Positions 31,002 through 48,933 of a DNA stretch of 64,000 nucleotides are shown piece by piece (the stretch's first letter is position 1; each line of letters begins with the position of its first letter). The DNA lies in the sequence record OR786310.1; one strand, given 5' to 3'. This DNA is from Escherichia phage ETEC-TG. The notes under the pieces are model-generated. The model was not told the origin of the DNA and did not search any database. It saw only the letters and a list, made by a program, of their open reading frames with translations. The translations under genes were made by a program, and so were the position numbers.

Positions 31002-31280
31002 TTAAAATGGTTCGTTAGTCTCCATCATATATTCTGCTTCTAGTTCTTCCATATGCTTTCTAAATTGGAAAGCAATTTCTGCTACAGTTACATTTAAATC
31101 TTTTTCAAAAACTTCTGTAGAGCCTTCATAAAAACGAATACCGTCAATTAAAAGCCCTCCGTGGTAATCCCAATCACTTTCACGAGAAAGCGGGTTAGGC
31201 TCTTCATAATAGTAATCCACCTCCACAACTAAGGCTTTCCCGTTACAAGTGGTGTATTCAAAATCAAAAGTGTTAATCAT
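31002..31280 (-). CDS. Hypothetical protein
   Basis: 92 aa, acidic; ATGA overlap with upstream gene. Confidence 0.4.
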   Translation of the reverse strand: MINTFDFEYTTCNGKALVVEVDYYYEEPNPLSRESDWDYHGGLLIDGIRFYEGSTEVFEKDLNVTVAEIAFQFRKHMEELEAEYMMETNEPF

Positions 31281-32224
31281 TATAGCTCCTCAAATAAAAG
31301 TCTACGACGCTCATTCAACACATCAATGTGATAATGAGTCCTGACATACTTAGCTAATGCTAATCCTTTCTCCATGCAAACATCGGGAGCACTTAATAAG
31401 TATTCCGTAATATCTTTCCACTCGGAAGGTGTTTCAGCAAAGAATAACAAATCTTTAAACTCTTGCGTATGATAATTCTCACGAGGAGAACAGATCAAAG
31501 GTAAACCCTTAGCACCTGCCTCAAGAATTTTAAGATTGCTTTTTGCATTATTAAACACGTTATCAATCAATGGCGCAAGACTGATTTGATGACCATCGTA
31601 AGATTCCATGTAGTTGGCATATGGTCTTACACCTTCATAAACACAAGTTGGTGCTACATTTTCTCTGATTACAGACCATTCACGACTACTTAAAACTTCA
31701 GAATCCCTACGAAAACCACATATTGTAAGATCTTTACCAAAATCGGGCAAGATAGCCAAGTCTTGTTTATGTGTTTCACTTCCAGCCCAGACTAATGGAG
31801 TTTTGGAGTAGCGATCACGGGTCAACACAAATTGACCTTCATCGTAAGGAAGTCCATTAGGGATTATGTGCACATTATCATTGTATTGTGAAAGTTCAAC
31901 TTGCAAAGCAGGTGTCGTAGTTGTAACAAGATCGCTGTGCTCTAAAAACCATTTTAAATGTTCACGAATACCTGATTCAAAAATACCTTCTAACATGTGT
32001 CCTTTTGGAATAACTAAAGAGTCATCCAAATCCATAACCATTTTAAAGCCTAGGTTTTTAAGGGCTAAAAAGCCCTGTTTACCTTTTGTTGGCACCCCGT
32101 TAAAAACGAAAACGTTGTGTTTAGGTTGTGAAGAGAACTGCCTTGAGTAAGGCAGCACTACCCTATGGAAATCGCAAACACTATAATTGATTCCGTTACG
32201 ATTGTCAAGAATTATTTGTCCCAT
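31280..32224 (-). CDS. Glycosyltransferase, GT-B fold (paralog 1)
   Basis: 314 aa; C-terminal KSNLKILEAGAKGLPLICS resembles GT1/GT4 nucleotide-sugar binding region; paralog of adjacent gene. Confidence 0.5.
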   Translation of the reverse strand: MGQIILDNRNGINYSVCDFHRVVLPYSRQFSSQPKHNVFVFNGVPTKGKQGFLALKNLGFKMVMDLDDSLVIPKGHMLEGIFESGIREHLKWFLEHSDLVTTTTPALQVELSQYNDNVHIIPNGLPYDEGQFVLTRDRYSKTPLVWAGSETHKQDLAILPDFGKDLTICGFRRDSEVLSSREWSVIRENVAPTCVYEGVRPYANYMESYDGHQISLAPLIDNVFNNAKSNLKILEAGAKGLPLICSPRENYHTQEFKDLLFFAETPSEWKDITEYLLSAPDVCMEKGLALAKYVRTHYHIDVLNERRRLLFEEL

Positions 32225-32231
32225 ACTTCAC

Positions 32232-33179
32232 CTACAAACTTTCAATAACCTGGCGTCGCAACTCATTTGCATCTGCCAGATTATAATGTGTTCGAACATG
32301 TTCAGCCAAGAACAAGCCACGATCTTCCCGATAGTTTGGATTGCGAAGAAGCTTAACAATTTCGTAATGCCATTCTGCTTTGTTCTCTGCGTAAGCAACA
32401 GCACGAGCATCTACAGGGTTAAAATAAGGTAATACTTTAGAACAAACAATCGGAATACCTTTTGCTCCAGCTTCCAGGATTTTGAGATTACTTTTACAAT
32501 TATTAAAATCATTATCTACCAAAGGAGCTATAGCAATAGCATGACTTTCGTAAACACTCATGTAATTATCTAAATCTTTTACAGCGGCTTTATATTTGGC
32601 ATTTGGTAAATTTCTGCGAATCTTAATCCATTCTTGTCCCGTGATGCTCTGTGATGCTTCATATCCCGCAATAGTAAGAAGTTCATCATCGAAAGTATTA
32701 GAGACTAGTCGTAAATCTGGTTCGTGACTAGCACCGCCAGCCCATACAACAGGGGTACCGGATGAACGATCATTTGACAAAGTGAATTGTCCACTATCAA
32801 AAGGAAGTGCATTTCGGATCACAACAACATTCCTATTTAAGTGACGGATCTTATATGCCAAATATTCTGTAGTCACAATAACCACATCAGCAAGCTTAAC
32901 CATAGCTACAATAGCATGAGTGTTTGACTCGTATAGATTTGCTAAATAATGTTCTGGATTAAGTTGGTAGAAATCATCTAAATCTACAACAATCTTAACA
33001 CCTTGACGTTTCAAAGATAAAACGTATTCTGCACCTTTAGAGTGGATACGGTTAAACACAACAACATCTTTCTTAGGTTGAAGATTATGGTTGTTAAATG
33101 GCATAACAATACGATGATAGTCACAACCGCTGTGAGGTTTTGCATCAATTTTTAGTTTAGACCATTTTTTATTTGACAT
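32232..33179 (-). CDS. Glycosyltransferase, GT-B fold (paralog 2)
   Basis: 315 aa; KSNLKILEAGAKGIPIVCS; collinear similarity to 31280-32224 product. Confidence 0.5.
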   Translation of the reverse strand: MSNKKWSKLKIDAKPHSGCDYHRIVMPFNNHNLQPKKDVVVFNRIHSKGAEYVLSLKRQGVKIVVDLDDFYQLNPEHYLANLYESNTHAIVAMVKLADVVIVTTEYLAYKIRHLNRNVVVIRNALPFDSGQFTLSNDRSSGTPVVWAGGASHEPDLRLVSNTFDDELLTIAGYEASQSITGQEWIKIRRNLPNAKYKAAVKDLDNYMSVYESHAIAIAPLVDNDFNNCKSNLKILEAGAKGIPIVCSKVLPYFNPVDARAVAYAENKAEWHYEIVKLLRNPNYREDRGLFLAEHVRTHYNLADANELRRQVIESL

Positions 33180-33852
33180 GTGCTAGTGCCTCCTCATAGG
33201 AAATTCGGATTTTCCCATTTTTAATATCCTCTAAAGATGCTTTATATTCTTCCCAGTTAATCCCGATAGCAGCTTCTTTCTCTTCTTTTGTCAGATTAGC
33301 AAAAGGCATAGGATTGTTTCCAAAAACATCGTCTGGGTGGATATAAGCCATGATACGAAGTGGACAAGGTGTTGCCTGAATACCATGATTCAAACCAGCA
33401 GCTTGTAAACGGTGTCCCCATTCAGCATCTTCAAAACCATAACCATGAGTGTAAGGACGGAAATAACCCATCTTCTCAACAACGGCACGAGAATACATTG
33501 CAAATTGACACATTGCAAGTTCCCAGAGAATAACTTCTCCTTTGCTTCCAACAACTTTATCTTTGAAGTACTCCGGCATACCAAAGAAATCCCATCCTCC
33601 AGAAACAGCTTGATCTACAAAGTATGTTTCCCATCCTTCCATGACTGGGTAGCAATCGTCGTCAAAAATAAACCAATAATCATAACCTTCTTCATAAAAC
33701 TGGTGCATAAGTTCATTCCTGGCATAAGCTACACCTTTACGATCTGGATCGTTGAATACTCGAAAATCTGCACGTGGATCTGTTACAAGGTAGTCTTTAA
33801 GTGGACGGACACCTACAGTGATAACACCCACTCCGATTTTAATATTTTCCAT
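33169..33852 (-). CDS. Glycosyltransferase, GT-A fold (DxD)
   Basis: 227 aa; FIFDDDCYP DxD-type motif; Rossmann-like N-terminus IGVGVITVG. Confidence 0.5.
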   Translation of the reverse strand: MENIKIGVGVITVGVRPLKDYLVTDPRADFRVFNDPDRKGVAYARNELMHQFYEEGYDYWFIFDDDCYPVMEGWETYFVDQAVSGGWDFFGMPEYFKDKVVGSKGEVILWELAMCQFAMYSRAVVEKMGYFRPYTHGYGFEDAEWGHRLQAAGLNHGIQATPCPLRIMAYIHPDDVFGNNPMPFANLTKEEKEAAIGINWEEYKASLEDIKNGKIRISYEEALAHVK

Positions 33853-33860
33853 TTTCTCTC

Positions 33861-34424
33861 CTAAATAGTTTTACTGTGATCGTGACAGTGTAATAAATGA
33901 TGTATAGACCGTTGAGGATTTGTTTGACCTAATCTGTAAATGTGAAACAGATACATTCCCCGCATCAATCCTAACCTCTTTCCTTTTTCATGTAAAGTGT
34001 GAGAGAAAATTAAGTCGAATTGGATAGATTTTTCTTCGAAAGGAATTTCATTCCACAATGATTTTCTAAAAAGCAAAAAGAAACCTGCCAGAGGTGTTCC
34101 GAAAGGAACTTCTTCAACACTCACTTTATGATATTCTCTTGCAATCTTAGCATATTCTATATGGTTTAGAATATCTGGATCATCGTTAATTTGGTTAGAG
34201 AAAAGCTGATAACCACTGCCTAACCTGTTACAAGTTGCACCTATTACATCAAAAGGCGGGTTTGACATAACAAGCTCTTCAAGCATAGATGGTTGATCAG
34301 GTAGGAGGAACATTGTATCGGTATCTCTTAAACACACCCAACTATCATCTGGAAGAACGGCAATGGCTTCATTGATAGCCTTGCCGATATTTCCTGTCAG
34401 ATAGGGAGTAATATAATAAATCAT
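33861..34424 (-). CDS. Putative glycosyltransferase-like protein
   Basis: 187 aa; CLRDTDTMF DxD-like motif; in glycosyltransferase cluster. Confidence 0.4.
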   Translation of the reverse strand: MIYYITPYLTGNIGKAINEAIAVLPDDSWVCLRDTDTMFLLPDQPSMLEELVMSNPPFDVIGATCNRLGSGYQLFSNQINDDPDILNHIEYAKIAREYHKVSVEEVPFGTPLAGFFLLFRKSLWNEIPFEEKSIQFDLIFSHTLHEKGKRLGLMRGMYLFHIYRLGQTNPQRSIHHLLHCHDHSKTI

Positions 34425-34889: not shown

Positions 34890-35125
34890 TCTACAGCATC
34901 ATGAGTCCTTGCAAAACGCTCCCACAATACAGCATCTACTTTAAGAACCATACAAGGATAAATACTGTCGTTGATCATGTCAATGCTATATTTATCTACA
35001 TCCTTTTCATCTTCCATAAACAAAGTAGCATATGCTTCTAAATGCTTACGGGTGTAGTATACATCCTCTTCAGTAAGACCGACAACCAGGTAACTTGCTA
35101 CAACAACAGTATTATCTTCTTGCAT
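34841..35125 (-). CDS. Hypothetical protein (start moved to internal ATG with AAAGGGGAG RBS)
   Basis: MQEDNTVVVASYLVVG...; RBS-supported start at 35125. Confidence 0.4.
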   Translation of the reverse strand: MQEDNTVVVASYLVVGLTEEDVYYTRKHLEAYATLFMEDEKDVDKYSIDMINDSIYPCMVLKVDAVLWERFARTHDAVECSAVMSQNNILGEIH

Positions 35126-35126
35126 T

Positions 35127-35648
35127 TTAACTCCCCTTTGGTAGATAGAAACCATGCACTTTATCTCGATAAACAAGACGCATATCACGTTCCCAGTGTG
35201 TCCTTATATTCCGTTTCTTGAAGTATAGAGCACCTTTAGTAACATCTAAAACAGACCGCAATTCAGGAAAATGTTTCTCTAAATAAAGTAAACGCTCCGC
35301 TATTGCTTTTGCTTCTTGCCACTTATCTTTCTCTGTTACGTTAAAAGTTTTCGCATATGAGAATTGCCCTTTCTGGAACAAGACTCCTCTGACTGTGTTA
35401 GGGAAGTAGGTATCATTTCTTCTGTTGATTACCACATTCCCAACGGCATTCATTCCTTTTTTACCCAGACCTCGACCTTCTGCGTAAATTGCACAAGCTA
35501 ATAGAATTTTATCATTATATTGCTTTGTACATTTGTGAACTACTTTAGCGGTTTTTACGTTTGCAGCTTCGGCTTTCGCCACAACAGGTGTAAATGTAAA
35601 AGCAGTTAAGGATAGTAACGCAACTGTTACAAAGTTTTTTATCAGCAA
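35127..35648 (-). CDS. Secreted cell-wall hydrolase, SleB/CwlJ-like (candidate endolysin)
   Basis: 173 aa; signal peptide (LSLTAFTFTPVVAKA); AVGNVVINRRNDTYFPNTVRGVLFQKGQFS matches SleB-type Hydrolase_2 motif; TTG start with AAGGAGG RBS. Confidence 0.6.
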   Translation of the reverse strand: MLIKNFVTVALLSLTAFTFTPVVAKAEAANVKTAKVVHKCTKQYNDKILLACAIYAEGRGLGKKGMNAVGNVVINRRNDTYFPNTVRGVLFQKGQFSYAKTFNVTEKDKWQEAKAIAERLLYLEKHFPELRSVLDVTKGALYFKKRNIRTHWERDMRLVYRDKVHGFYLPKGS

Positions 35649-35710
35649 ATTTTGCCTCCTTTTTAAGTTAACGAATTTCTAGTATAACACGATAGAGGCT
35701 TTATTGCAAG

Positions 35711-35733
35711 AGGGGGATTTCTCCCCCTCAAAA
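35711..35733 (-). other. Palindromic stem-loop GAGGGGGA-TTTCT-CCCCCTC between TerD gene and hydrolase gene
   Basis: Perfect G/C-rich inverted repeat; near-identical copy at 17872-17890. Confidence 0.45.
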
Positions 35734-35747
35734 TCATTTGTTAATTA

Positions 35748-36350
35748 TTATGGACATTCATACCATTCTTTTTTACCACCGAAGGCCATCACCACATCGC
35801 AAATATCCAGACCAGCTTTACCTACACCATATGCTTTCAGCTTCCATTCCCCATCTTCACGAACCAAGGAAGCCACGTGGCAGATTGTGTTACCAGCTAC
35901 TTCAGGAGCCAGGAAGTCAAAATCCAGAATTTCCACATTGCGTTCGGAGTCAAAGATTTTAAGCATACCTTCAGAAGCATGACCAAAACGTTTCAGACCT
36001 GTATCATCATCAATGGTCAGAACAAAGGCAATCTCTTGTGCATCAGGAGAGATTTTAGCCAGAGTAATATCAATCTGCTCCATGCTGCCAGTCCCATCAC
36101 GAACATCGTCACCAGCGAAGGTAGAACGTTCAGGATCAAACTTGTTAGCGTAGCAAACCAGATGACGTGCAGACAGCATTTCAGGATTGCCAGCGGCATT
36201 ATGACGACAAACCAGTGCACTTACATCCAGATCCAGTTTAGAATCAGATTTCCAAGAGAATTCCAGGCGCAGTTCTTTCAGAGCCGGAGCAACTTTCTTC
36301 AGGGAAATTTTTTCGCTAGAGCCTTTTTTCAGGGAAATTTTATCAGTCAT
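35748..36350 (-). CDS. terD: TerD-family stress-response protein
   Basis: 200 aa; duplicated N-terminal EKISLKK strand; length and composition typical of TerD/TerE/TerZ family; GAGGAGA RBS. Confidence 0.65.
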   Translation of the reverse strand: MTDKISLKKGSSEKISLKKVAPALKELRLEFSWKSDSKLDLDVSALVCRHNAAGNPEMLSARHLVCYANKFDPERSTFAGDDVRDGTGSMEQIDITLAKISPDAQEIAFVLTIDDDTGLKRFGHASEGMLKIFDSERNVEILDFDFLAPEVAGNTICHVASLVREDGEWKLKAYGVGKAGLDICDVVMAFGGKKEWYECP

Positions 36351-36365
36351 CTTTTGTCTCCTCTA

Positions 36366-36635
36366 TTATTTAAGTGTAATACCAGTTACAGTCAATTCTA
36401 CTTCCAAAAGCTTAGATGTGTTTTGGATTGATACTAATTGTGCATGATGGTTTAGTTCTACAGCGGAATAATCATTCTCCCCATCGTCTACTTTTAAATA
36501 AACAATGATTTCACTAAGGTCTAAACCATTTTCGTCAAATGCATTTTCATAGACGAAAGTATCTCCTACATCCAAATCTTTAATGGTAAGGCATCGTTTA
36601 TTTACTTTTTGCTCATCAATTTCGAAGTTTAACAC
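36366..36635 (-). CDS. Small protein, paralog A of the DLDVG family
   Basis: 89 aa; DLDVGDTFVYENAFDENGLD ... EVELTVTGITLK; paralogous to 37657-37935. Confidence 0.5.
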   Translation of the reverse strand: MLNFEIDEQKVNKRCLTIKDLDVGDTFVYENAFDENGLDLSEIIVYLKVDDGENDYSAVELNHHAQLVSIQNTSKLLEVELTVTGITLK

Positions 36636-36864
36636 TTCTTCCTCCTAATGTTATCTCCGGTTTGTATATACGAAGAATTATAGCATTTTCATTTTCTTTG
36701 TCAACCCATTCTTCATAATCGGGCCATACATGAATCTCTACTCTACTTACAATATCTTCCATTCGCACAGTCCCAATGAAATACTCTTTGAGACTGCGCA
36801 TAATGAAAGCTTCTCTCTCGCGCCAATAATTTTCTACGACTTGAGAGGCAAGCTCGTCGATCAT
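36616..36864 (-). CDS. Hypothetical protein
   Basis: 82 aa. Confidence 0.4.
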   Translation of the reverse strand: MIDELASQVVENYWREREAFIMRSLKEYFIGTVRMEDIVSRVEIHVWPDYEEWVDKENENAIILRIYKPEITLGGRSVKLRN

Positions 36865-37655
36865 TTTTTAGCACCTACTTTAACAACCCACTCTCCGAAC
36901 TCTTCAGATAAAAGTTTGTCATAAAGCTCTGAATCTGTCAAGTCTAAATCTTTAATGCCAATAAAACCAACATTATCATAAGCATTTGCCAGTTCTTTCA
37001 GGAAGCCAAACTTCTCATTACCAACGCCAACCATGAACCAATAAATAGGTTTATTCTTATTCTCTTCAATAAGACGACGAACAGCACTAGGATCACCATT
37101 CTCACCATCCGTCTGGAAGAATACAACACCAGGGGTAACGTCAGCACCTGGTTCAGATACAGCTACAACTTTTTCACGCTCTACAGACACTGTTTCAGTT
37201 TTACCAAGCAGACGATTAAAGAAGCCTTTCTTTGGAGCCTCCTCTTGTACCACTTGTTTAGTGGTAATATATTTGGTAACAGTGCCAAAATACTCATCGT
37301 AGATATCTGCCATTACAGGGGCGTAATTTGTTCCACCTCCGATACGAACATTGCGCATACATTTACCAACATAGTCATCGTAAACGTCTGCTGTTGCTGG
37401 AGTAAGCTCTTGGGAACTCGTATTAAAGGCCCACATATCAATTTGTTGATTATCGTCGAACAGCATACCAAAAGGAAGCAGTTTACCTACAAAATCACTC
37501 ACTACCCCACTAGAATATAGACCATGCATACTACCAGAAATATCTAGAGCACATGCTACACGAAGAACAATCTTACCTTCATTCAGGTTCTTATTCTTTT
37601 TCAGAGAGAAAGCAAGGTTTTCTTGACGTTTTTTCAGGCTGATTTTCTCGGACAT
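36861..37655 (-). CDS. von Willebrand factor A (vWA) domain protein, TerY-like
   Basis: 264 aa; MIDAS DISGSM plus GGTN; N-terminal MSEKISLKK shared with TerD; AAGGAG RBS. Confidence 0.6.
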   Translation of the reverse strand: MSEKISLKKRQENLAFSLKKNKNLNEGKIVLRVACALDISGSMHGLYSSGVVSDFVGKLLPFGMLFDDNQQIDMWAFNTSSQELTPATADVYDDYVGKCMRNVRIGGGTNYAPVMADIYDEYFGTVTKYITTKQVVQEEAPKKGFFNRLLGKTETVSVEREKVVAVSEPGADVTPGVVFFQTDGENGDPSAVRRLIEENKNKPIYWFMVGVGNEKFGFLKELANAYDNVGFIGIKDLDLTDSELYDKLLSEEFGEWVVKVGAKK

Positions 37656-37656
37656 A

Positions 37657-37935
37657 TTATTTCTCCTTCTTAAGTGTAATATTGGTAACTTCTAAATCTA
37701 CTTCCACCATATTTGTATCTGGTGGGATGCAATGAGTATAGCCTCGTTGTGCTAGTGATCCATTAATACAAATCGCACTGTTTGTGGAATTTTTAATGAA
37801 CACCAAGTTATGGTAGGTATCCAACCCTGCGTCTTTATAGGCATCATAATACATGAATGTGGCCCCTACGTCAAGATCTTCGAAAGCAATAGGTAAATCC
37901 TGACTTTTTTCTTCTTGAATATTGAATCTAAACAT
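37657..37935 (-). CDS. Small protein, paralog B of the DLDVG family
   Basis: Start moved to ATG with GAGGAGG RBS; DLDVGATFMYYDAYKDAGLD ... EVDLEVTNITLK. Confidence 0.5.
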   Translation of the reverse strand: MFRFNIQEEKSQDLPIAFEDLDVGATFMYYDAYKDAGLDTYHNLVFIKNSTNSAICINGSLAQRGYTHCIPPDTNMVEVDLEVTNITLKKEK

Positions 37936-38491
37936 GCATACCTCCTCTACCAATTTTGAAGCCCAAATCGTAAGCTTCCTTAGTGATCTTTTGTAACTCA
38001 CTTATAGGAAGTGTTACAAGAGGATCATCTTCTTCAATTTCCATCTTGTCATCTTCTGTTTCAATGAGAGTATTATGCACTTTGTGATAAGGGTTGTCAA
38101 CACGTTTAAACTTATTCTTTTCTGTGCTGAAAAAACAATCTGGATCTTCTTCACCATCACCCCAACCTTGGTTAGGATCTCCGTCAGATTGTTCTGTAGG
38201 GATTTCACCTGTAAAGTACTCTTCCAGCACCATAGCAATACCGTCCCTTGGATTTGAGGAATGCATTAAATCACAAACCTTACCCCAATCCATAGCCCAT
38301 TCGAACCGTTCACGAACGCCATTTTCATCCTCCTTTCCAGAGAAAACACAACCATAACTATCATAGTTGCCATACATCTCTTCAATAACAACACCGTCCT
38401 TCAAAAGAAAGAGATAACAAGGTGATCCGTCGAAAGAAGTAGAAAGGGCAGCTTTGCCCGATTCTTTGCACAAAAAGCTAAAACAACCCAT
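37928..38491 (-). CDS. Hypothetical protein
   Basis: 187 aa, Cys- and acidic-rich. Confidence 0.4.
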   Translation of the reverse strand: MGCFSFLCKESGKAALSTSFDGSPCYLFLLKDGVVIEEMYGNYDSYGCVFSGKEDENGVRERFEWAMDWGKVCDLMHSSNPRDGIAMVLEEYFTGEIPTEQSDGDPNQGWGDGEEDPDCFFSTEKNKFKRVDNPYHKVHNTLIETEDDKMEIEEDDPLVTLPISELQKITKEAYDLGFKIGRGGMHV

Positions 38492-38889
38492 TACAAACCC
38501 TCCTTCAGATTATCAAGAGCTACAGTGGTTTCACAAAATTCTCCATAAGCTTTATGATGTTCCAGAAAAGCTTCGGGTCCACCCCAGTCATTATCTTGTG
38601 TATTCCAGCCATCTATAAAAGCATCTTCAATGATTGTGATCAGTTCCTGTCGAGTCAACGTAATGGTATCAGGTTTCTGCGTAGTTTCCACACGGAACCC
38701 TGGTTCTTCATAAAAACCTTTAGTTATAATGGATTCTAACTCTTCTGCATCACAGAGGAAGTAGCCACAAAGATAACACCAACCGTCATCATCTTTCATT
38801 ACTTCATAAACTTCACCACTTGCCAAATTAGTGAAAAGAGTAGGGTTTGTTACTGTAAGTTTTAAAAGAATACCTGTTGGATTATACAT
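38491..38889 (-). CDS. Hypothetical protein
   Basis: 132 aa; start overlaps stop of upstream micro-gene. Confidence 0.4.
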   Translation of the reverse strand: MYNPTGILLKLTVTNPTLFTNLASGEVYEVMKDDDGWCYLCGYFLCDAEELESIITKGFYEEPGFRVETTQKPDTITLTRQELITIIEDAFIDGWNTQDNDWGGPEAFLEHHKAYGEFCETTVALDNLKEGL

Positions 38890-39055
38890 CTTCTTCCTCC
38901 TCTAAAATATGGAACCCGTAATTACAATAATCCTGAAAGGTTTCGTGTGCAAGATCTTCTATATCCTCTTGAGACATATCATCTTCAATTTCGATATCCA
39001 CAACCTCATTGCATCCACACCAAGCAGTTTCAATATTCACTCGTAATATTTTCAT
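38882..39055 (-). CDS. Small acidic Cys-containing protein (57 aa; not in ORF track)
   Basis: Hand-translated MKILRVNIETAWCGCNEVVDIEIEDDMSQEDIEDLAHETFQDYCNYGFHILEEEEDV; GAGGAGGAGGAG RBS; TAATG overlap. Confidence 0.35.
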   Translation of the reverse strand: MKILRVNIETAWCGCNEVVDIEIEDDMSQEDIEDLAHETFQDYCNYGFHILEEEEDV

Positions 39056-39252
39056 TACTCCTCCTCCTCATTGAAGTCAATATCTGCAAGGAGTTCGAAT
39101 TTACGGAAGTTACGACAACCTTCATAAATATAACAATCACGACAAACTGCTAGAACACTTGGGGGATATATGCCTCCCATCGGTGCGAATCGTTTTTCGT
39201 CATCATAACGGACACCAATGTCTTCATCAATTATATAGATACGGATTCTCAT
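39055..39252 (-). CDS. Small Cys-containing protein
   Basis: 65 aa; CRDC ... C; acidic C-terminus. Confidence 0.35.
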   Translation of the reverse strand: MRIRIYIIDEDIGVRYDDEKRFAPMGGIYPPSVLAVCRDCYIYEGCRNFRKFELLADIDFNEEEE

Positions 39253-40361
39253 TTACCAAGCCCTCGTTTCACAGCAGCTACCATCCCGTCTTCCAGAGAT
39301 TGAACTTCATTAATATAATCAACACGAGCAGCACGGGCTTCCGTATTGATGCGGTTAGTTTCTTCCAGCATCTTAACCAAGTTTTCCTGATCGTGACGCA
39401 GAGTTTCAATATCCAACACTTGACGGTTAGCCAGTGCTGCTGCTTCGATCTGATTCTGTGTGGCAAGATCGCTACCCAGTTTAATTGCCAGGTTAAATTC
39501 ATCAAGAACGTTATTCTGCGTCTCTGCTGCTTTCATTTGACGTAAGCTCTCGATATACATTGAGAAGTTAGCAGAGTAAGCAGGAATAACATTATTTACT
39601 ATGTTACGCGCAGATCGCATTAAGCTTGCAGAAACTTTTTGCATACCTTGTACACGCGGTCCCATTTGGACACACAGTAGGCGCAATGCTTTTAAATCTG
39701 CAATACGAATCTCCAGAAGATCCAAAGTATCTCGGATCACTTGTCGCTGTTCTACTGCATCTTCTGGAAGAGCAGCCAAAGCTTGTTCTTCTTTTTCATA
39801 GGTTGCTGTTAGAAGCTGCATATCTCGGTTCAAACTTGCAGCATATTGTCCAATAGCTTGATGTAGCTTTTCAAGATATACCAAGGAATCTTCTTCTTTG
39901 CGAATATCCATTTGAAGGTTCTTTACCAACTCTTCAATACGGTTATTAACATTATCAAACTCCCCGAACAGGTCTTCTTTCATACCCATAACTTTTTTAA
40001 TGAGTTTAGTAATACCCTTGCTTTGTTTAATAGAGTTTGGATCAAGTTGTTTTGCCTGTTTAATCAAAGCTGTAAGTCGTTCACTCATCTGATCGCCTTG
40101 ATTACTACGTTGATGTTTTAACACCTCGGCATTCAAGGAACGCAAGGTTGTTCCTGCCTCTGCCCCAATCTCTTCAATCTCTTGTCGGGTCATAGAAGGC
40201 AAAACTGGAACTTCTTGCGGTGCCGCTGGTGCATAAACAGGACTGGCATCTAACACGCTTGGAGCGAATACAGATTTACTTGCATCTGTTGTTGCAGCGA
40301 ATACACTCATTTCAGACTTCTTCTGACCACCAGTAGCTGCTTTTAAAAATGGACTTGTCAT
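39249..40361 (-). CDS. TelA-like (toxic anion resistance family) coiled-coil protein
   Basis: 370 aa, predominantly alpha-helical/coiled-coil with TelA-like length and composition; located with TerC/TerD/vWA genes. Assignment by resemblance and context only. Confidence 0.45.
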   Translation of the reverse strand: MTSPFLKAATGGQKKSEMSVFAATTDASKSVFAPSVLDASPVYAPAAPQEVPVLPSMTRQEIEEIGAEAGTTLRSLNAEVLKHQRSNQGDQMSERLTALIKQAKQLDPNSIKQSKGITKLIKKVMGMKEDLFGEFDNVNNRIEELVKNLQMDIRKEEDSLVYLEKLHQAIGQYAASLNRDMQLLTATYEKEEQALAALPEDAVEQRQVIRDTLDLLEIRIADLKALRLLCVQMGPRVQGMQKVSASLMRSARNIVNNVIPAYSANFSMYIESLRQMKAAETQNNVLDEFNLAIKLGSDLATQNQIEAAALANRQVLDIETLRHDQENLVKMLEETNRINTEARAARVDYINEVQSLEDGMVAAVKRGLGK

Positions 40362-40948
40362 TCTTCATTCTCCTCTTCTGCATCTCTTATATATGGTGAA
40401 ACACCGTACTCTTTAGCTACTTTAACCCAATCATCCCATTTATACAACCATAATTTTCCTTCAGTTCCTTCTTTATCTGATTTCAACCACATGTTAGGTT
40501 GCTTGCCTGGGTACATGCGATTAGGTTTACGATTATAACCTCTAACACATCTTGTCGCAAACCTATCTACCAGAACAAGAACATATTTATACTCGTGGTT
40601 CAACGGCTCTTTGGAAGTGGCTTTAGGATTAGCCCCTAACTCTGCTGCCAGTTTTTGCCAATGAGCACCGTGCCTACTAAACTTACCCATACAACCATCA
40701 ATAGCGTGAGCAATTTCGTGCTTCATTGTATCCACGATCATATCTCTTGTAGAGTTCTTATGCAAGTGCCAATTTACAACAACAATTTTATCTCGGTAGT
40801 TGCACCAACCGAAAGAGTTATTCACTTTGTTTCTAACACAAGCTTTATATCCTGCTTCACGTAACATGTTGTAGTAAACAGGAAAATCTTCTTTTATTTC
40901 CTGCATCACTTCCCACCACAAGAGTTGCAAGTCTCTCTCGGTATGCAT
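40358..40948 (-). CDS. SprT-like zinc metallopeptidase domain protein
   Basis: 196 aa; HEIAH (HExxH) preceded by FGWCNY region typical of SprT-like domains. Confidence 0.55.
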   Translation of the reverse strand: MHTERDLQLLWWEVMQEIKEDFPVYYNMLREAGYKACVRNKVNNSFGWCNYRDKIVVVNWHLHKNSTRDMIVDTMKHEIAHAIDGCMGKFSRHGAHWQKLAAELGANPKATSKEPLNHEYKYVLVLVDRFATRCVRGYNRKPNRMYPGKQPNMWLKSDKEGTEGKLWLYKWDDWVKVAKEYGVSPYIRDAEEENEE

Positions 40949-42572: not shown

Positions 42573-43547
42573 TTAAACAGCAGCTTCTTCTTTTTCAGGG
42601 AAGATAAAGCTTGCAATAACACCAAGAGCTAATGTGCCTAGAACAATCATCAGACTTACGTTAGGGGAAATATCATGCGGGAAGAATGACCACTTGGCAT
42701 GAAGTGTTTCACCGAACGGGTGATACATAAGTTTAGCACCAACAAACACCAGAACCACAGCAACAGCTTTCTCTAAGTGAACCAGATATTTCACAGCTAC
42801 ACTCAACACAAAGAAAAGTGCACGTAAACCAAGAACAGCCATCAGCATTGCAGAATAAACTAGCAGAGGTTCTTGTGTCACACCGATCACAGCCGGAACT
42901 GAATCAAAAGAGAAGACAATATCTGTAAGCTCAATAACAAACACACAAAGAAGAGCAGGAGTTGCATATTTAATACCATTCTTAATGGTGATGAACTTTT
43001 CACCATCCAGTGCATTGTGCACAGGCAGAACTTTACCTACTAAACGAACAGCCCAATGCTTAGAGTAATCAATATCCTCTTCTTCGTCACCACCTTTGAT
43101 GATAGCCACGGCAGACCAAGCTACAATCAAACCGAACAACACTTGGACCGACCAATGAAGGTTAAACAAAGCGGTCCCTGCTGCAACAAAAATACCTCGG
43201 AAGACAATGGCTCCTGCAATCCCCCAAAGTAGAATCTTATGTTGGAGATGTGTGCTCTTAATTCCAAAGCTTGCAAAAATCGCCATGAACACCATCAGGT
43301 TATCTACAGAAAGACTCTTTTCCAACACATAGCCACTTAGGAAAAGCGCGGCAAACTCTTTACCATGTTCTACCCAAATGAATGCGTAATATCCTAAAGC
43401 TAAAGCAATCCAAAAAACAGACCAAAGCAAAGCAGATTTAATTCCAATTTCTTTATTCTCTTTATGACCAAAGAAATCGATACCAATAGACAATGCCAAA
43501 ATACCAACTAAAACAACTACATCAATAATTGGGAAACCGAGTTGCAT
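42573..43547 (-). CDS. terC: TerC-family integral membrane protein
   Basis: 324 aa; multiple TM helices; signature EKSLSVDNLMVF; GAGGAGA RBS. Confidence 0.7.
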   Translation of the reverse strand: MQLGFPIIDVVVLVGILALSIGIDFFGHKENKEIGIKSALLWSVFWIALALGYYAFIWVEHGKEFAALFLSGYVLEKSLSVDNLMVFMAIFASFGIKSTHLQHKILLWGIAGAIVFRGIFVAAGTALFNLHWSVQVLFGLIVAWSAVAIIKGGDEEEDIDYSKHWAVRLVGKVLPVHNALDGEKFITIKNGIKYATPALLCVFVIELTDIVFSFDSVPAVIGVTQEPLLVYSAMLMAVLGLRALFFVLSVAVKYLVHLEKAVAVVLVFVGAKLMYHPFGETLHAKWSFFPHDISPNVSLMIVLGTLALGVIASFIFPEKEEAAV

Positions 43548-43860: not shown

Positions 43861-44334
43861 TTAAAGTTTATAAATAGTCACATCGTGACCTGTTTTTACT
43901 AAAGTTTCTTCAATCATCACTTGGATGATAGCCCAATTACCTCCAGCATATCCAGCGCCAATCATAGGTAAGCCGATCTTACATTTTTGGTCACGGAGAA
44001 GCAAATCATTAGCCATAGCTATTAGTGCATCGTAAAGTGCATCATAGTCCAACTGACGACCTTTAGCATTGTATCCGTAACGGTATTGCCCGTATAGATT
44101 ATATACCAAAGGGTCTGATTGTTCGTCTGGCACCCCTAAACTAAAACAACCTAGTTTACTTTGATCACCAGCCATTGTGTCTAAGTCTGCTGCATATGCG
44201 TAAGGAAATGCTTGTTTGATTTGTGGGGCAATACCTGCCCCCATATTACACATACAGTTGCAACAATGAGCAATAACAGTTACTTCACCTGCTTTAGCGG
44301 CATCAATAAGATTACCTCTTTTCATTTTAAGCAT
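43861..44334 (-). CDS. Macro domain protein (ADP-ribose binding/processing)
   Basis: Start moved to ATG with TAAGGAG RBS; motifs GNLIDAAKAGEVTVIAHCCNCMCNMGAGIA and IGLPMIGAGYAGG resemble macro-domain signatures. Confidence 0.5.
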   Translation of the reverse strand: MLKMKRGNLIDAAKAGEVTVIAHCCNCMCNMGAGIAPQIKQAFPYAYAADLDTMAGDQSKLGCFSLGVPDEQSDPLVYNLYGQYRYGYNAKGRQLDYDALYDALIAMANDLLLRDQKCKIGLPMIGAGYAGGNWAIIQVMIEETLVKTGHDVTIYKL

Positions 44335-44347
44335 TTTTAGCTCCTTA

Positions 44348-45175
44348 TTACAGAATGTGTTGTTTTGTGTAACGATCCAAGAATTCAAAGTTTTCAGCAT
44401 ACTTTGAAATTCGGTTGTAACCTTCTCCCAAACATCCAAAGAAAAGTTGCTCTACATAGTAATGTGGCAATTGGCTAAGAATGATTTTGAAGTCTTCATG
44501 ATTTTGGCCCATAAGATACTTAATAGGACGAACAAGACACTGTGCATCACGTTCTTCATTAATCATTTTAACAAACGCTTCTGGTGTATTAATGTAGTTA
44601 AAATTCAGTTTAGCTTCGGTATCTGCTTGATTACCTTCGTATTTTGCAAAATACAAGAAGTAAACATCATTTTTAACTTGATTTTCATCAAGGATCTCAA
44701 TCAGTTTGTCTTCATGCGTTCCAGTGATATTTACATCATCAATGAATACAAGCTTCTTATCACCCCAGAATTCTTTGTTGCAGTAGAATGTATCCCCATC
44801 AATAAGTTTCTTACGACTAGCTTTATCCAAGAAACCATAATCGTTGATATAGCTAACTTTACGATGAATAATGTCCAGTTCTGCTGAACGACCTTGATCA
44901 TATTGTGATTGCAACATATTAAAGTAATTAATAAAATGATCTGTCATCATTGTTGCAGCATTATGCACATGGTTGTAAGGAGAAGGGATGATAACAAATT
45001 GTTCCCCAATATGTTTCATTGCCACTTGAGCAAAAAACTGAAGTGCCAATTCTTTACCCATACGACGCGCAGCCTGGTTACTACCAAATTTCAATTTTGA
45101 ATAATCTTTAATATCAAAAGTAGCAGTTTCCAGGTCATCAAATTTATTTGCAAAAATTTGAGTTTGATTACGCAT
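44348..45175 (-). CDS. Phosphoribosyltransferase-fold (PRTase) protein
   Basis: 275 aa; PRPP-binding-loop-like motif KLVFIDDVNITGT; GAGGAGA RBS. Confidence 0.55.
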   Translation of the reverse strand: MRNQTQIFANKFDDLETATFDIKDYSKLKFGSNQAARRMGKELALQFFAQVAMKHIGEQFVIIPSPYNHVHNAATMMTDHFINYFNMLQSQYDQGRSAELDIIHRKVSYINDYGFLDKASRKKLIDGDTFYCNKEFWGDKKLVFIDDVNITGTHEDKLIEILDENQVKNDVYFLYFAKYEGNQADTEAKLNFNYINTPEAFVKMINEERDAQCLVRPIKYLMGQNHEDFKIILSQLPHYYVEQLFFGCLGEGYNRISKYAENFEFLDRYTKQHIL

Positions 45176-45824
45176 TTACAATTTCTCCTCTTTTAAGTTT
45201 CTCTAGTAAGTCGTTAGGGTTCTTAATATGACAGAAGTTAAATCCTAAGTCAACACATTTTCCATCATATTCTTCACTATCGCCTACGTGCAATACTTCG
45301 TGCCCTAACAGAGGGATCGGAGAATACGTGAGCGTGCGAGCAAAGAATCGCGGATCTGGTTTACAAAGTAAAGCTTCATCCGAGAAATGGGTGAACTCAA
45401 AACAATTCCAACTATCAAACTTACAAGCACGACGCAGGATATCCCCTGATATGAAGTTGGTATTGCTCTTAATACTCAAATCATAACGCCCCGAAAGATA
45501 CAGCAAGTACATCGGCAGATCCACGGCTACGTGTGGTGGAAACTTAAGGAACCACTGTTCACACTCGAAACGAAGCTTTGCAGACTTCCAAGGCGTTATC
45601 CCAAGTTCAGAACCAAGTTTTTCCCAGGCGTATGCTGCACACTCGGCTTTGCCTTGAAGTGCTGCATTATCCAGTTCCTTTTTGATCTTCTTATAAGCTG
45701 CTCTTGCTTCCACTTCCGTAATATCTCCATATTTTGCGATAGTCCAGGCTCGCATATCTGCGTAATTGGAGTTTGCTGTGATCAGTGTGTTCCATACATC
45801 AAAAGAGATATGTTTAATAGTCAT
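45168..45824 (-). CDS. HAD-superfamily hydrolase (subfamily IA-like)
   Basis: 218 aa; motif I FDVWNTL, motif II SIKSNT, motif III CKPDPRFF, motif IV HVGDSEEYD. Confidence 0.6.
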   Translation of the reverse strand: MTIKHISFDVWNTLITANSNYADMRAWTIAKYGDITEVEARAAYKKIKKELDNAALQGKAECAAYAWEKLGSELGITPWKSAKLRFECEQWFLKFPPHVAVDLPMYLLYLSGRYDLSIKSNTNFISGDILRRACKFDSWNCFEFTHFSDEALLCKPDPRFFARTLTYSPIPLLGHEVLHVGDSEEYDGKCVDLGFNFCHIKNPNDLLEKLKRGEIVNA

Positions 45825-46446: not shown

Positions 46447-46671
46447 TTAAAATGGAAGTCTTTGAAGTTCATCTCCTCCGATATCAAGTAATTTAGCAAC
46501 ATCTCGATCAGAAAGCAACTCTTTTCTTTGTAAAATATCCACAAGGGTTGCAAGAATGTCCTTAACGTCCCGATCACTGTTCTTCAAAAGTTCTCCTGCC
46601 GTCCCTACTCTATCTCCTACAGCAAAATATGTAACCATGAAACCTCCTAAGTTAATCTGATTGCCAACCAC
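46447..46671 (-). CDS. Hypothetical protein
   Basis: 74 aa. Confidence 0.35.
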   Translation of the reverse strand: MVGNQINLGGFMVTYFAVGDRVGTAGELLKNSDRDVKDILATLVDILQRKELLSDRDVAKLLDIGGDELQRLPF

Positions 46672-47122
46672 TTGCCGTTTTGGTCCATAATCTTTGATTA
46701 TCTGACCCTCTGAAAGGTTTTGTAGTTGGATTGTTTATTTCATACTTTCCGTCTACAATGATGTCAACAAGATTTTTAATATACAAAGGCACTTCCTCAA
46801 AAGTATATCCTGTATACACCATTATATCTTTGCTTGACCCATAAACGTCTCTAACCTTTTCTATAAGGTTTTTAACATTGTAAATATTCTGCGGATCTAA
46901 TGGTTCTCCTCCTAAAATTGTTAAACCTTTTACAAACGGTCTTGACAAATCTTTTAAAACTTGCTCTACATTTTCGTGAGTAAACGGTTTCCCATAAGAA
47001 TAAGACCAGGCTTTTTGGTTAAAACAGCCACGACAACCGTGGCTACAACCACTAACCCAGAGGGAGCACCTAACTCCCTCGCCATTAATAAGATCTACAG
47101 GTTCATATCCTGCAAAATTCAA
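46652..47122 (-). CDS. nrdG: Anaerobic ribonucleotide reductase activating protein (radical SAM)
   Basis: 156 aa; CSHGCRGC (CX3CX2C) cluster; ATGA overlap with nrdD. Confidence 0.7.
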   Translation of the reverse strand: MNFAGYEPVDLINGEGVRCSLWVSGCSHGCRGCFNQKAWSYSYGKPFTHENVEQVLKDLSRPFVKGLTILGGEPLDPQNIYNVKNLIEKVRDVYGSSKDIMVYTGYTFEEVPLYIKNLVDIIVDGKYEINNPTTKPFRGSDNQRLWTKTASGWQSD

Positions 47123-48933
47123 AGATGTTTCTCCCTTTGCAAAACTTCCTGCATTTTACCTTTGTTGTAAGGGCGTGAATTAGGGGCAGAAAGATACCCT
47201 GACACACGCCTAACTACAGAAATAGTTTCTTCTTCATGGTTGCCACAATCAGGACACTCAAACCCTTTAGCCGTTGCCTTAAATTCTCCATGAAAACCAC
47301 ACTTAAAACATTGATCCACGGGCTGATTAATACCAAAATAGTGAATATGTTCATAAGCGTAGTCTACTAAAGTCTCCAAAGCTTCTAAGTTATTCTTTAA
47401 GTTTGGTGTTTCGATATAACTTATGTTACCACCATTGCTAATCTGTGCAAAACCTGCTTCATAATCCCATTTTTCAAAAGGATTTGTTACCAACCATACA
47501 GGTTGGTGAAAAGAGTTGGTAAGATAATCTCTTTCTACCAAACCTGGGTATTTTTCATTTAAAGCTGTTGCAAACTTATAGCACAAGGATTCTGCTGGGG
47601 TTCCATAGAGACTAAACGCCAACTTAGATCGTTCTTTAAACACAGCACACACATCTTTCATATGTTGCAGAATGCTTTTACCAAGTTCCTTTTTATCTTT
47701 TTCTTCTGGATAAAGGATTTCCAAAGCTTCGGCAAGACCTACATAACCAATACTAATAGAAGCATAACCACCTTCAAACAAAACACCAATTTCATCATTG
47801 GCATTTAAACGCGCTAAAGCCCCTTCCATGAAAAGAATAGGGTTTTCAGATGCTTTGGTATGTCTAATACGGTTTACACGTAACATGTGAGCATCGTAAG
47901 CTATCTCCATATGTTTATTAAGGAGGTCGGTGAAAGATTCTCCTTTACTTCTCGCTTCCGCAGCAATCAGAGGCAAGTTGATAGAAACTACTCCAAGGTT
48001 GAATCGTCCATCATATTTTTCTCCTTGTTCGGTGGCATAGTACGACAAAAAGGAACGACAACCCATACTCGTAACAGTACCATCTGCTGATCCCGTAACT
48101 TCTTTGTTCAAAGGAACAGAAATAAAATCTGGATAAATACGATCAGCACAACATGCCAAAGCTTGTTGTTTAAGGTCATAGTTAGGATCACTAGGTTTCA
48201 TGTTAACACCTTCTTGTAAAAAGAAAATAACTTTAGGGAATACAGGTGTTACATGATCTTTGCCTAGACCGTTACTATGCACTTTAAGATAGTTAGCTGT
48301 GATCATTCTGCCAAAAACAGAGGTATCCAGACCCATGCTGATTGTAATAAAAGGAGATTGTCCATTTACACTCATTAAAGTATTAACCTGATACAAGAGA
48401 GTTTGCATAGCATCATATACATCTTGTTCGGTCATTTCTAGTGCTTCTTTCCTTGCATAACAACCGTAGCGACGTTTGGTTATCTCCATGTTTTTAAGGA
48501 AACTAGCTTCAACATAAGGACTAAGACCTTTATCAATGTGCGCACACGTCTGACCTCCATACTGACTGGAGGCAACAGCTTGGATGATTTGAGTTAGCAC
48601 TGTGGTAGCTACCCCAACAGATTTTGGTTTTTCTATCTGTGCGGCTCCGATCTTAAAGCCATTCTCTAACATATCTTGATAATTAACAAGACAACAGTTT
48701 GTAAGAGGAGAGAGTAGATAATCTAAGTCGTGAATATGTCCAAAACCTTCTGTATGCCATTCTGACAAGTTTTTTGGCAGTATCTGTGTCATTGCCATAT
48801 GTTTGCTTAAAATCCCCGCCAAGAGATCCCTGTGCGTGTTAACGAGGTGGGAAGGTTTGTTTGCATTCTCTCTAGTGTATGTTTCTGAAGTGCGATCTAA
48901 AAAAGAAAAAACATCTTGGTACAAATCTTTCAT
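47119..48933 (-). CDS. nrdD: Anaerobic ribonucleoside-triphosphate reductase
   Basis: 604 aa; C-terminal zinc ribbon CFKCG ... CPDCG followed by glycyl-radical motif RRVSGYL. Confidence 0.8.
   Translation of the reverse strand: MKDLYQDVFSFLDRTSETYTRENANKPSHLVNTHRDLLAGILSKHMAMTQILPKNLSEWHTEGFGHIHDLDYLLSPLTNCCLVNYQDMLENGFKIGAAQIEKPKSVGVATTVLTQIIQAVASSQYGGQTCAHIDKGLSPYVEASFLKNMEITKRRYGCYARKEALEMTEQDVYDAMQTLLYQVNTLMSVNGQSPFITISMGLDTSVFGRMITANYLKVHSNGLGKDHVTPVFPKVIFFLQEGVNMKPSDPNYDLKQQALACCADRIYPDFISVPLNKEVTGSADGTVTSMGCRSFLSYYATEQGEKYDGRFNLGVVSINLPLIAAEARSKGESFTDLLNKHMEIAYDAHMLRVNRIRHTKASENPILFMEGALARLNANDEIGVLFEGGYASISIGYVGLAEALEILYPEEKDKKELGKSILQHMKDVCAVFKERSKLAFSLYGTPAESLCYKFATALNEKYPGLVERDYLTNSFHQPVWLVTNPFEKWDYEAGFAQISNGGNISYIETPNLKNNLEALETLVDYAYEHIHYFGINQPVDQCFKCGFHGEFKATAKGFECPDCGNHEEETISVVRRVSGYLSAPNSRPYNKGKMQEVLQREKHL

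Follow-up and report, generated by a model that had tools for sequence, protein, structure and literature searches.

A stretch of 64,000 nucleotides (nt) from the genome of Escherichia phage ETEC-TG (OR786310.1), referred to below as the window, carries two short related genes, smallA and smallB, inside a tellurite-resistance-like (Ter) gene island. Every gene at about 29–46 kb of the window lies on the minus strand, and the gene order is smallB, vWA-TerF-like, an open reading frame (ORF) of 82 amino acids (aa), smallA, TerD and endolysin, within the larger island (Table 1). Over 35000–39000 the sequence shares 99.5% identity with Escherichia phage dw-ec and about 98.7% with phAPEC8; the window therefore belongs to a phAPEC8-like Phapecoctavirus (Stephanstirmvirinae). 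A first-pass annotation, made from the sequence alone, had placed each small gene immediately upstream of a Ter component, and this is indeed the arrangement: smallA is followed by the gene of a TerD-domain protein (PF02342) and smallB by that of a vWA protein (PF10138).

The smallA gene reads from 36635 to 36366, starts with GTG, has an AGGAGG Shine–Dalgarno (SD) sequence 5 nt upstream and encodes, on the minus strand, the 89 aa first annotated. The frame of smallB, from 37935 to 37657, had also been located correctly; it starts with ATG behind a GAGGAGG SD sequence and encodes 92 aa, the 93 originally given being a codon count that includes the stop. A longer reading of smallB (114 aa, from a GTG at 38001) was rejected for the ATG at 37935 because the homologues all start at the aligned Met, an SD sequence is present and the shorter version is the one annotated in related records. 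The two products are paralogues, as had been proposed. They align without a gap over the full length with 30 identities in 89 positions (34%; BLASTP, E 5e-14), far above chance, and both match PHROG 11278, a family of function unknown, from end to end (smallA, E 7e-45, residues 1–89 of 89; smallB, E 3.5e-50, residues 1–92 of 92). Both contain the motifs DLDVG(D/A)TF(V/M)Y, GLD and EV(E/D)L(T/E)VT(G/N)ITLK from which the relationship was first noticed. Translational coupling had been suggested for both gene pairs. The smallB–vWA junction fits such coupling, with 1 nt between the TAA of smallB and the ATG of vWA and an AAGGAG within the final smallB codons. Between the TAA of smallA and the ATG of TerD there is a 15-nt spacer containing GAGGAG, which points to a close but ordinary SD-driven start.

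Table 1. Features of the window in and around the vWA/TerD region of the Ter island.
Feature	Position	Strand	Assignment
HAD	45168-45824	-	Pfam match
PRTase_3 (ComF-like)	44348-45175	-	Pfam match
Macro	43861-44439	-	Pfam match
TerC	42573-43547	-	Pfam match
SprT-like	40358-40948	-	Pfam match
TelA	39249-40361	-	Pfam match
Several small ORFs between TelA and smallB	37928-39252	-	
Promoter-like site TTGACA-17-CATAAT, 11/12, in 187-aa ORF	38072-38100	-	Consensus match only
smallB, 92 aa, copy directly 5' of vWA	37657-37935	-	PHROG 11278
vWA-TerF-like, 264 aa, intact MIDAS motif	36861-37655	-	PF10138, E 1.6e-37
82-aa ORF	36616-36864	-	PHROG 22387, E 1e-57
Extended -10 sigma70 promoter TTGACA-16-TGnTATAAT, 12/12	36677-36704	-	Consensus match
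smallA, 89 aa, copy directly 5' of TerD	36366-36635	-	PHROG 11278
TerD-domain protein, 200 aa	35748-36350	-	PF02342, E 3.2e-28
SleB-like endolysin	35127-35648	-	

The AlphaFold2 (AF2) model of smallB has a predicted local distance difference test score (pLDDT) of 82 and a predicted template modelling score (pTM) of 0.71. When the model was compared with BFVD, the top match was K7QLS7, the phAPEC8 orthologue of smallA, with a template modelling (TM) score of 0.75–0.77; many uncharacterised small phage proteins come after it. The models suggest that smallA and smallB probably share one generic SH3-like barrel for which no specific relative can be named. Searches with the sequences gave no relative either. 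Pfam returned no match for 20 family members beyond scattered hits at E>0.04, NCBIfam and PADLOC gave no relative for any member, and when PDB sequences were searched with the family profile (hmmsearch) the top hits were unrelated proteins at E 0.18 or worse. The SH3, KOW, Tudor and FeoA sequence families gave the small proteins no significant match in Pfam or PDB, and the TerD hidden Markov model (HMM; PF02342) matched neither smallA nor smallB. We found no mention of the small protein in the literature on phAPEC8, on Phapecoctavirus or on Ter components in phages. Ter islands and their occurrence in phages have been described before, but the only record of the small family is a PHROG without annotation.

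Members of the family are about 87–93 aa long, and all 17 that were examined are acidic (isoelectric point, pI, 4.3–5.5; net charge -2 to -11). Gly-24 is invariant, and Asp-39, Lys-48 and Asn-58 are each kept in 16 of the 17 sequences. Asp-39 belongs to the GLD motif and sits in an exposed loop; the one sequence in which it is replaced comes from the metagenomic locus L008. The ratio of nonsynonymous to synonymous divergence (dN/dS) is 0.16–0.38 for both small copies, which indicates purifying selection on each. When the window is compared with phage ECO340P2, smallB (against L022 3159-3431) has a dS of 0.41 and 87% aa identity, against a dS of about 0.07 and 97–100% identity for vWA, the 82-aa ORF, smallA and TerD. 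This spike is local, a mosaic or recombination patch limited to smallB.

By tblastn, 126 phage records encode the small protein: some 64 have two copies and are Phapecoctavirus-like, and the 62 with one copy are Justusliebigvirus/phi92-like or belong to Klebsiella phage 05F01. An exhaustive HMM search, using a 21-sequence profile against 1.84 billion representatives at a cut-off of E<=1e-3, yielded 20 hits, which are stand-alone proteins of 54–93 aa bar one spurious repeat protein, and a profile scan of viral contigs gave only 3 close loci. Gene order was read in 11 looked-up contexts and in the phage records. All of the contexts read are phage-like, with the small gene touching vWA and/or TerD, and they come from phages whose Ter cassette has the form TerC...TelA...vWA-TerF-like...TerD...endolysin. 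At least one copy touches vWA in each family-bearing genome, and most genomes also have one that touches TerD. For the roughly 20 representatives from the exhaustive search, no context that was read placed the small gene in a bacterial ter operon.

Four arrangements of the family were found. Eight distant metagenomic relatives have the small gene between vWA and TerD. In seven of them (L008, L009, L010/L011, L012, L013, L014 and L020) the order is vWA, small gene, TerD, usually then endolysin; in the eighth, L015, it is vWA, small gene, small gene, TerD, the tandem copies (5001-5546) being 90 and 87 aa long. In phi92 (gp174, gp173, gp172) and Klebsiella 05F01 the small gene precedes vWA and TerD directly follows it. 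The order of the window (smallB, vWA, an 81/82-aa ORF, smallA, TerD) recurs in phiWec179, in IMG/VR locus L007 and in contig L019/L021, and orthologues of smallB lie upstream of vWA in phi92, 05F01, phiWec179 and L021. The small gene touches vWA and/or TerD across lineages in which vWA is only 45–57% identical. In the distant loci it is retained, unlike the remaining small ORFs of the TelA–vWA interval. Judged by neighbourhood the family behaves as a Ter-system accessory, its linkage to core Ter genes being consistent across diverged genomes.

Some further observations concern the same phages. The TerD of the window is 81% identical to phi92 gp172. In phi92 a 200-aa protein, gp171 (L002 6788-7390), is encoded between TerD and endolysin; it has no counterpart in the window, where endolysin comes next after TerD, and it was rejected as a second TerD (no Pfam match; BLASTP E 0.097). 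Records labelled as Campylobacter (MG0656xx), Acinetobacter (ABPW7, OP562383) and Pseudomonas (PsgM04F, OR584014) phages contain small-gene or DNA sequence of the E. coli Phapecoctavirus/Justusliebigvirus type, ABPW7 at 98.9% nt identity over 4 kb and Campylobacter B15 at 96.7% aa identity. The host labels of these records look doubtful.

The perfect promoter match of Table 1 lies within the 82-aa ORF, 41 nt 5' of where smallA starts. No other perfect sigma70 match occurs in the 64 kb of the window, against a chance expectation of 0.11. In phiWec179 and L021 an identical promoter precedes smallA by 38 nt, and L007 also contains the sequence. The promoter is thus conserved at 12/12 in three diverged lineages, even though the ORF around it retains only about 60% identity, with synonymous sites close to saturation. 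In phi92, Citrobacter phage Tr1 and Klebsiella phage FBKp34, which have no smallA, a site matching at 10–11 of 12 positions lies 33–41 nt upstream of TerD, and the FBKp34 record annotates a promoter upstream of TerD at that site. Four of the loci with a copy between vWA and TerD have TTGACT-17-TAT(G/A)AT 57–58 nt upstream of the small gene. The second site in Table 1 is 136 nt upstream of smallB, and phi92 has the same site at the same distance. These sites are consensus matches rather than measurements; they suggest that the small gene preceding TerD heads a transcription unit of its own that includes TerD.

The 82-aa ORF, which the first-pass annotation omits, shares 4 nt with the end of vWA and 20 nt with the beginning of smallA. 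It was found by phmmer in two-copy genomes only and always accompanies copy A; its dN/dS is 0.22–0.33. The single-sequence AF2 model (pLDDT 53) is uninformative and no fold was assigned.

In the vWA alignment the columns of the metal-ion-dependent adhesion site (MIDAS), DxSxS...T...D, are invariant in 12 diverged lineages. Pfam defines PF10138 as the C-terminal vWA domain of TerF, a TerD–vWA fusion, and because the two are fused in bacterial TerF, TerD and vWA are expected to work together. We note that vWA (37655-37590) and TerD (36350-36280), both on the minus strand, also share their N-terminal start, MSEKISLKK... and MTDKISLKKGSSEKISLKK, the likeness being limited to the N-terminal motif M[ST][ED]KISLKK. 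The vWA-TerF-like protein seems to retain a TerD-like N-terminal strand, which might be a remnant of a TerF-type fusion.

The reading that we favour, with a probability of about one in two, is that the small protein serves the vWA/TerD module of these phages as an optional, non-enzymatic accessory or adaptor. We infer physical binding, a choice of partner and an effect on Ter function: the protein would bind the vWA/TerD pair as an accessory or adaptor subunit and would tune the assembly or activity of a putative metal-dependent module early in infection. A more specific form of this proposal is unlikely. In it the barrel, as a regulatory subunit invented by the phage, would plug the MIDAS of vWA and/or dock on Ca2+-binding TerD, so that the borrowed Ter module becomes phage-controlled; the Phapecoctavirus copies would each be dedicated to one partner and the TerD-side copy would be expressed from its own early promoter. 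As a matter of speculation, the GLD Asp could act as a MIDAS ligand of vWA. Known ligands of vWA and integrin I-domain MIDAS offer a parallel, in that the MIDAS of the adjacent vWA is invariant and the GLD Asp of the small protein near-invariant; the likeness is a purely conjectural one, and the Asp is replaced in L008.

A number of points weigh against an accessory or adaptor role. The vWA gene occurs in 209 phage records and the small gene in 126. Tr1, whose vWA is 67% identical to that of the window, has no family member in an HMM scan of the whole 154-kb genome (nothing better than E 0.03). FBKp34, with the order vWA, TerD, TerD, has no HMM match in the vWA–TerD region and is also absent from the tblastn-matched phage records. 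Both phages are classified in Stephanstirmvirinae. The Ter cassettes of Caulobacter, Rhizobium, Pseudomonas and Acinetobacter phages likewise have no family member next to vWA or TerD. The small protein is therefore not an obligate subunit, since vWA–TerD occurs without the family in related phages. Moreover, repeated adjacency is not fully independent evidence, because the carriers form one broad, strongly syntenic phage lineage, and some unrelated small ORFs downstream of endolysin are likewise conserved. The dN of the small genes is about 2–8 times that of vWA or TerD. Fast evolution of this kind is also typical of host-interaction proteins. Mirror-tree correlations speak for the accessory reading, but as a weak signal, with 12 lineages and near-saturated distances: the small protein correlates better with TerD (r 0.78, partial 0.52 given vWA) than with vWA (r 0.69, partial -0.14 given TerD). 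As to the pairing in related phages, which the first-pass annotation proposed to survey, the link with the Ter cassette is conserved; the pairing with vWA/TerD is real but optional and lineage-restricted.

ORFs that flank vWA in phages of this kind were considered as diverged members and rejected, as none matched the family HMM: those of 85 and 94 aa in Pseudomonas Pyxpy02, of 57 aa in Acinetobacter 313, of 53 aa in Tr1 and of 110 and 85 aa in FBKp34. Elsewhere in Tr1 an 80-aa ORF (L026 40296-40535) matches the HMM of the small proteins marginally, at E 0.03 and 11 bits; another small barrel protein may be encoded there, though not a demonstrable family member.

The main rival to an adaptor is an independent early gene held in place by synteny. 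The small proteins would then be early products with tasks of their own, such as binding host factors or countering defence, encoded in a promoter-proximal slot, and their adjacency to vWA and TerD would be inherited. We consider this possible and the less expected of the two. It would account for the high dN and for the dS of smallB relative to its neighbours, for a family that is small, acidic and orphan, for loss of the small gene without loss of vWA–TerD in Tr1 and FBKp34, for the similar barrels in many uncharacterised small phage proteins and for the strong sigma70-type promoter of its own. It is harder to reconcile with the contact of every context-read member with vWA and/or TerD where vWA is so diverged. 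New copies, furthermore, stayed in the cassette in two ways, upstream of vWA or in tandem, and the small gene is retained where the accessory ORFs next to it, on the TelA side of vWA, are completely replaced.

That the small proteins are SH3/KOW/Tudor-like nucleic-acid-binding regulators, acting on translation or transcription of the vWA or TerD gene downstream, we regard as quite unlikely. In the window each copy does lie directly 5' of its would-be target. In most lineages, however, the small gene follows vWA rather than preceding it; Pfam, NCBIfam and PDB sequences gave no signal for any member; and the acidic pI and negative charge of all 17 members are unfavourable for RNA or DNA, and therefore argue against nucleic-acid binding.

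The model of the first-pass annotation, a small gene and a Ter gene duplicated as one unit, has in its favour that both copies precede a Ter component at a very short distance, yet the data contradict it and it is very improbable, given that vWA-TerF-like and TerD are in different Pfam families, that single-copy genomes already contain both, that the 82-aa ORF separates vWA from smallA and that the tree puts the small-gene duplication inside a lineage already having vWA and TerD.

Since vWA and TerD are different families, the small gene alone was duplicated. A more fitting description is of a single accessory gene, belonging to a vWA/TerD pair, that underwent duplication or relocation inside the cassette. 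In the neighbour-joining tree the copies 5' of TerD form an A clade (bootstrap 60%) and the copies 5' of vWA, including those of phi92 and 05F01, a B clade (78%). With 43% support the A and B clades group as sisters, nested among the copies that lie between vWA and TerD. Alignment position 18 is mostly Phe, with Ile in the A clade, and position 56 mostly Glu, with Cys in the B clade. A single copy between vWA and TerD is the most widespread arrangement and likely the ancestral one. The simplest history would start from this state. Duplication in the Stephanstirmvirinae of E. coli and Klebsiella would have left copy A in the slot before TerD and moved copy B to the other side of vWA, directly in front of it. 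Phages of the phi92 and 05F01 types would now keep only B; copy A and the 82-aa ORF would either have disappeared from phi92-like phages or have been acquired by Phapecoctavirus. Support for this history is moderate, given how short and divergent the small proteins are. After duplication the paralogues would have specialised, as the residues fixed at positions 18 and 56 suggest, possibly one for each partner. The tandem duplication at L015 is independent of that in Phapecoctavirus, so the small gene has been duplicated within the cassette at least two times, in different ways (upstream of vWA and in tandem).

The genes for a HAD-like hydrolase, PRTase_3 and Macro (43861-45824, minus strand) lie directly upstream of TerC, and these are 'nucleoside-like metabolite' enzymes tied to Ter systems. 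Their presence gives this 150-kb phage a fairly complete Ter system. PADLOC-DB gave no match for smallA, smallB, the 82-aa ORF, vWA, TerD, TelA or TerC. Further out on the same strand, four glycosyltransferase-like genes form a run at 31280-34424, downstream of the endolysin block, and an anaerobic ribonucleotide reductase pair, NrdD and its radical-SAM activase (46652-48933), lies upstream of the Ter island.

The set of Ter components described by Iyer et al. (2021; PMC7824862) includes TerC, TelA, TerD, vWA-TerF-like, PRTase_3, HAD and Macro. The window encodes the same component set as the bacterial Ter systems (terZABCDEF, TelA) and TerF. Bacterial operons differ in having no member that resembles the small protein among the short stand-alone hits of the exhaustive search, and the TerD–vWA fusion of TerF is represented in the window by separate genes with a small gene beside or between them. 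Phage Ter cassettes have been described in jumbo and Caulobacter phages (PMC7824862) and in Klebsiella phage phiKp34/vB_KpM_FBKp34 (PMC8386662), and both papers propose superinfection exclusion or stress tolerance as the role. Like the window, these lytic phages have a core of TelA, vWA, TerC and TerD. The described cassettes are without the small barrel gene, which the available parts of PMC7824862 and PMC8386662 do not mention; the Phapecoctavirus cassette adds two small copies and the 82-aa ORF. Small SH3-like barrels also occur in systems that handle metals, as FeoA and as the C-terminal SH3-like domain of DtxR/IdeR. These are analogies only, with no sequence relationship, generic structural scores and partner proteins unrelated to those of the small protein.

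The locus is best classed among the Ter cassettes of phages, as one with an additional and in some cases duplicated component, probably SH3-like, which is narrowly distributed and dispensable and to which an accessory function would be ascribed. Ter function, and the reason lytic phages carry Ter genes, are poorly understood, and the small protein provides a concrete handle on both. Its small size makes it easy to express or to delete, and natural variants with zero, one and two copies exist within Stephanstirmvirinae. The protein may also indicate where TerD and vWA have their interaction surface. Were the more specific proposal of a MIDAS-plugging or TerD-docking subunit true, the phage would possess a Ter device under its own control, for example for superinfection exclusion or for early envelope or metal homeostasis. 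If the small protein is a regulator or adaptor, it would help to explain how phages use Ter genes; if it is not, it would be another fast-evolving early gene. Either way, the idea of a duplicated module is corrected and an evolutionary framework for the locus is gained.

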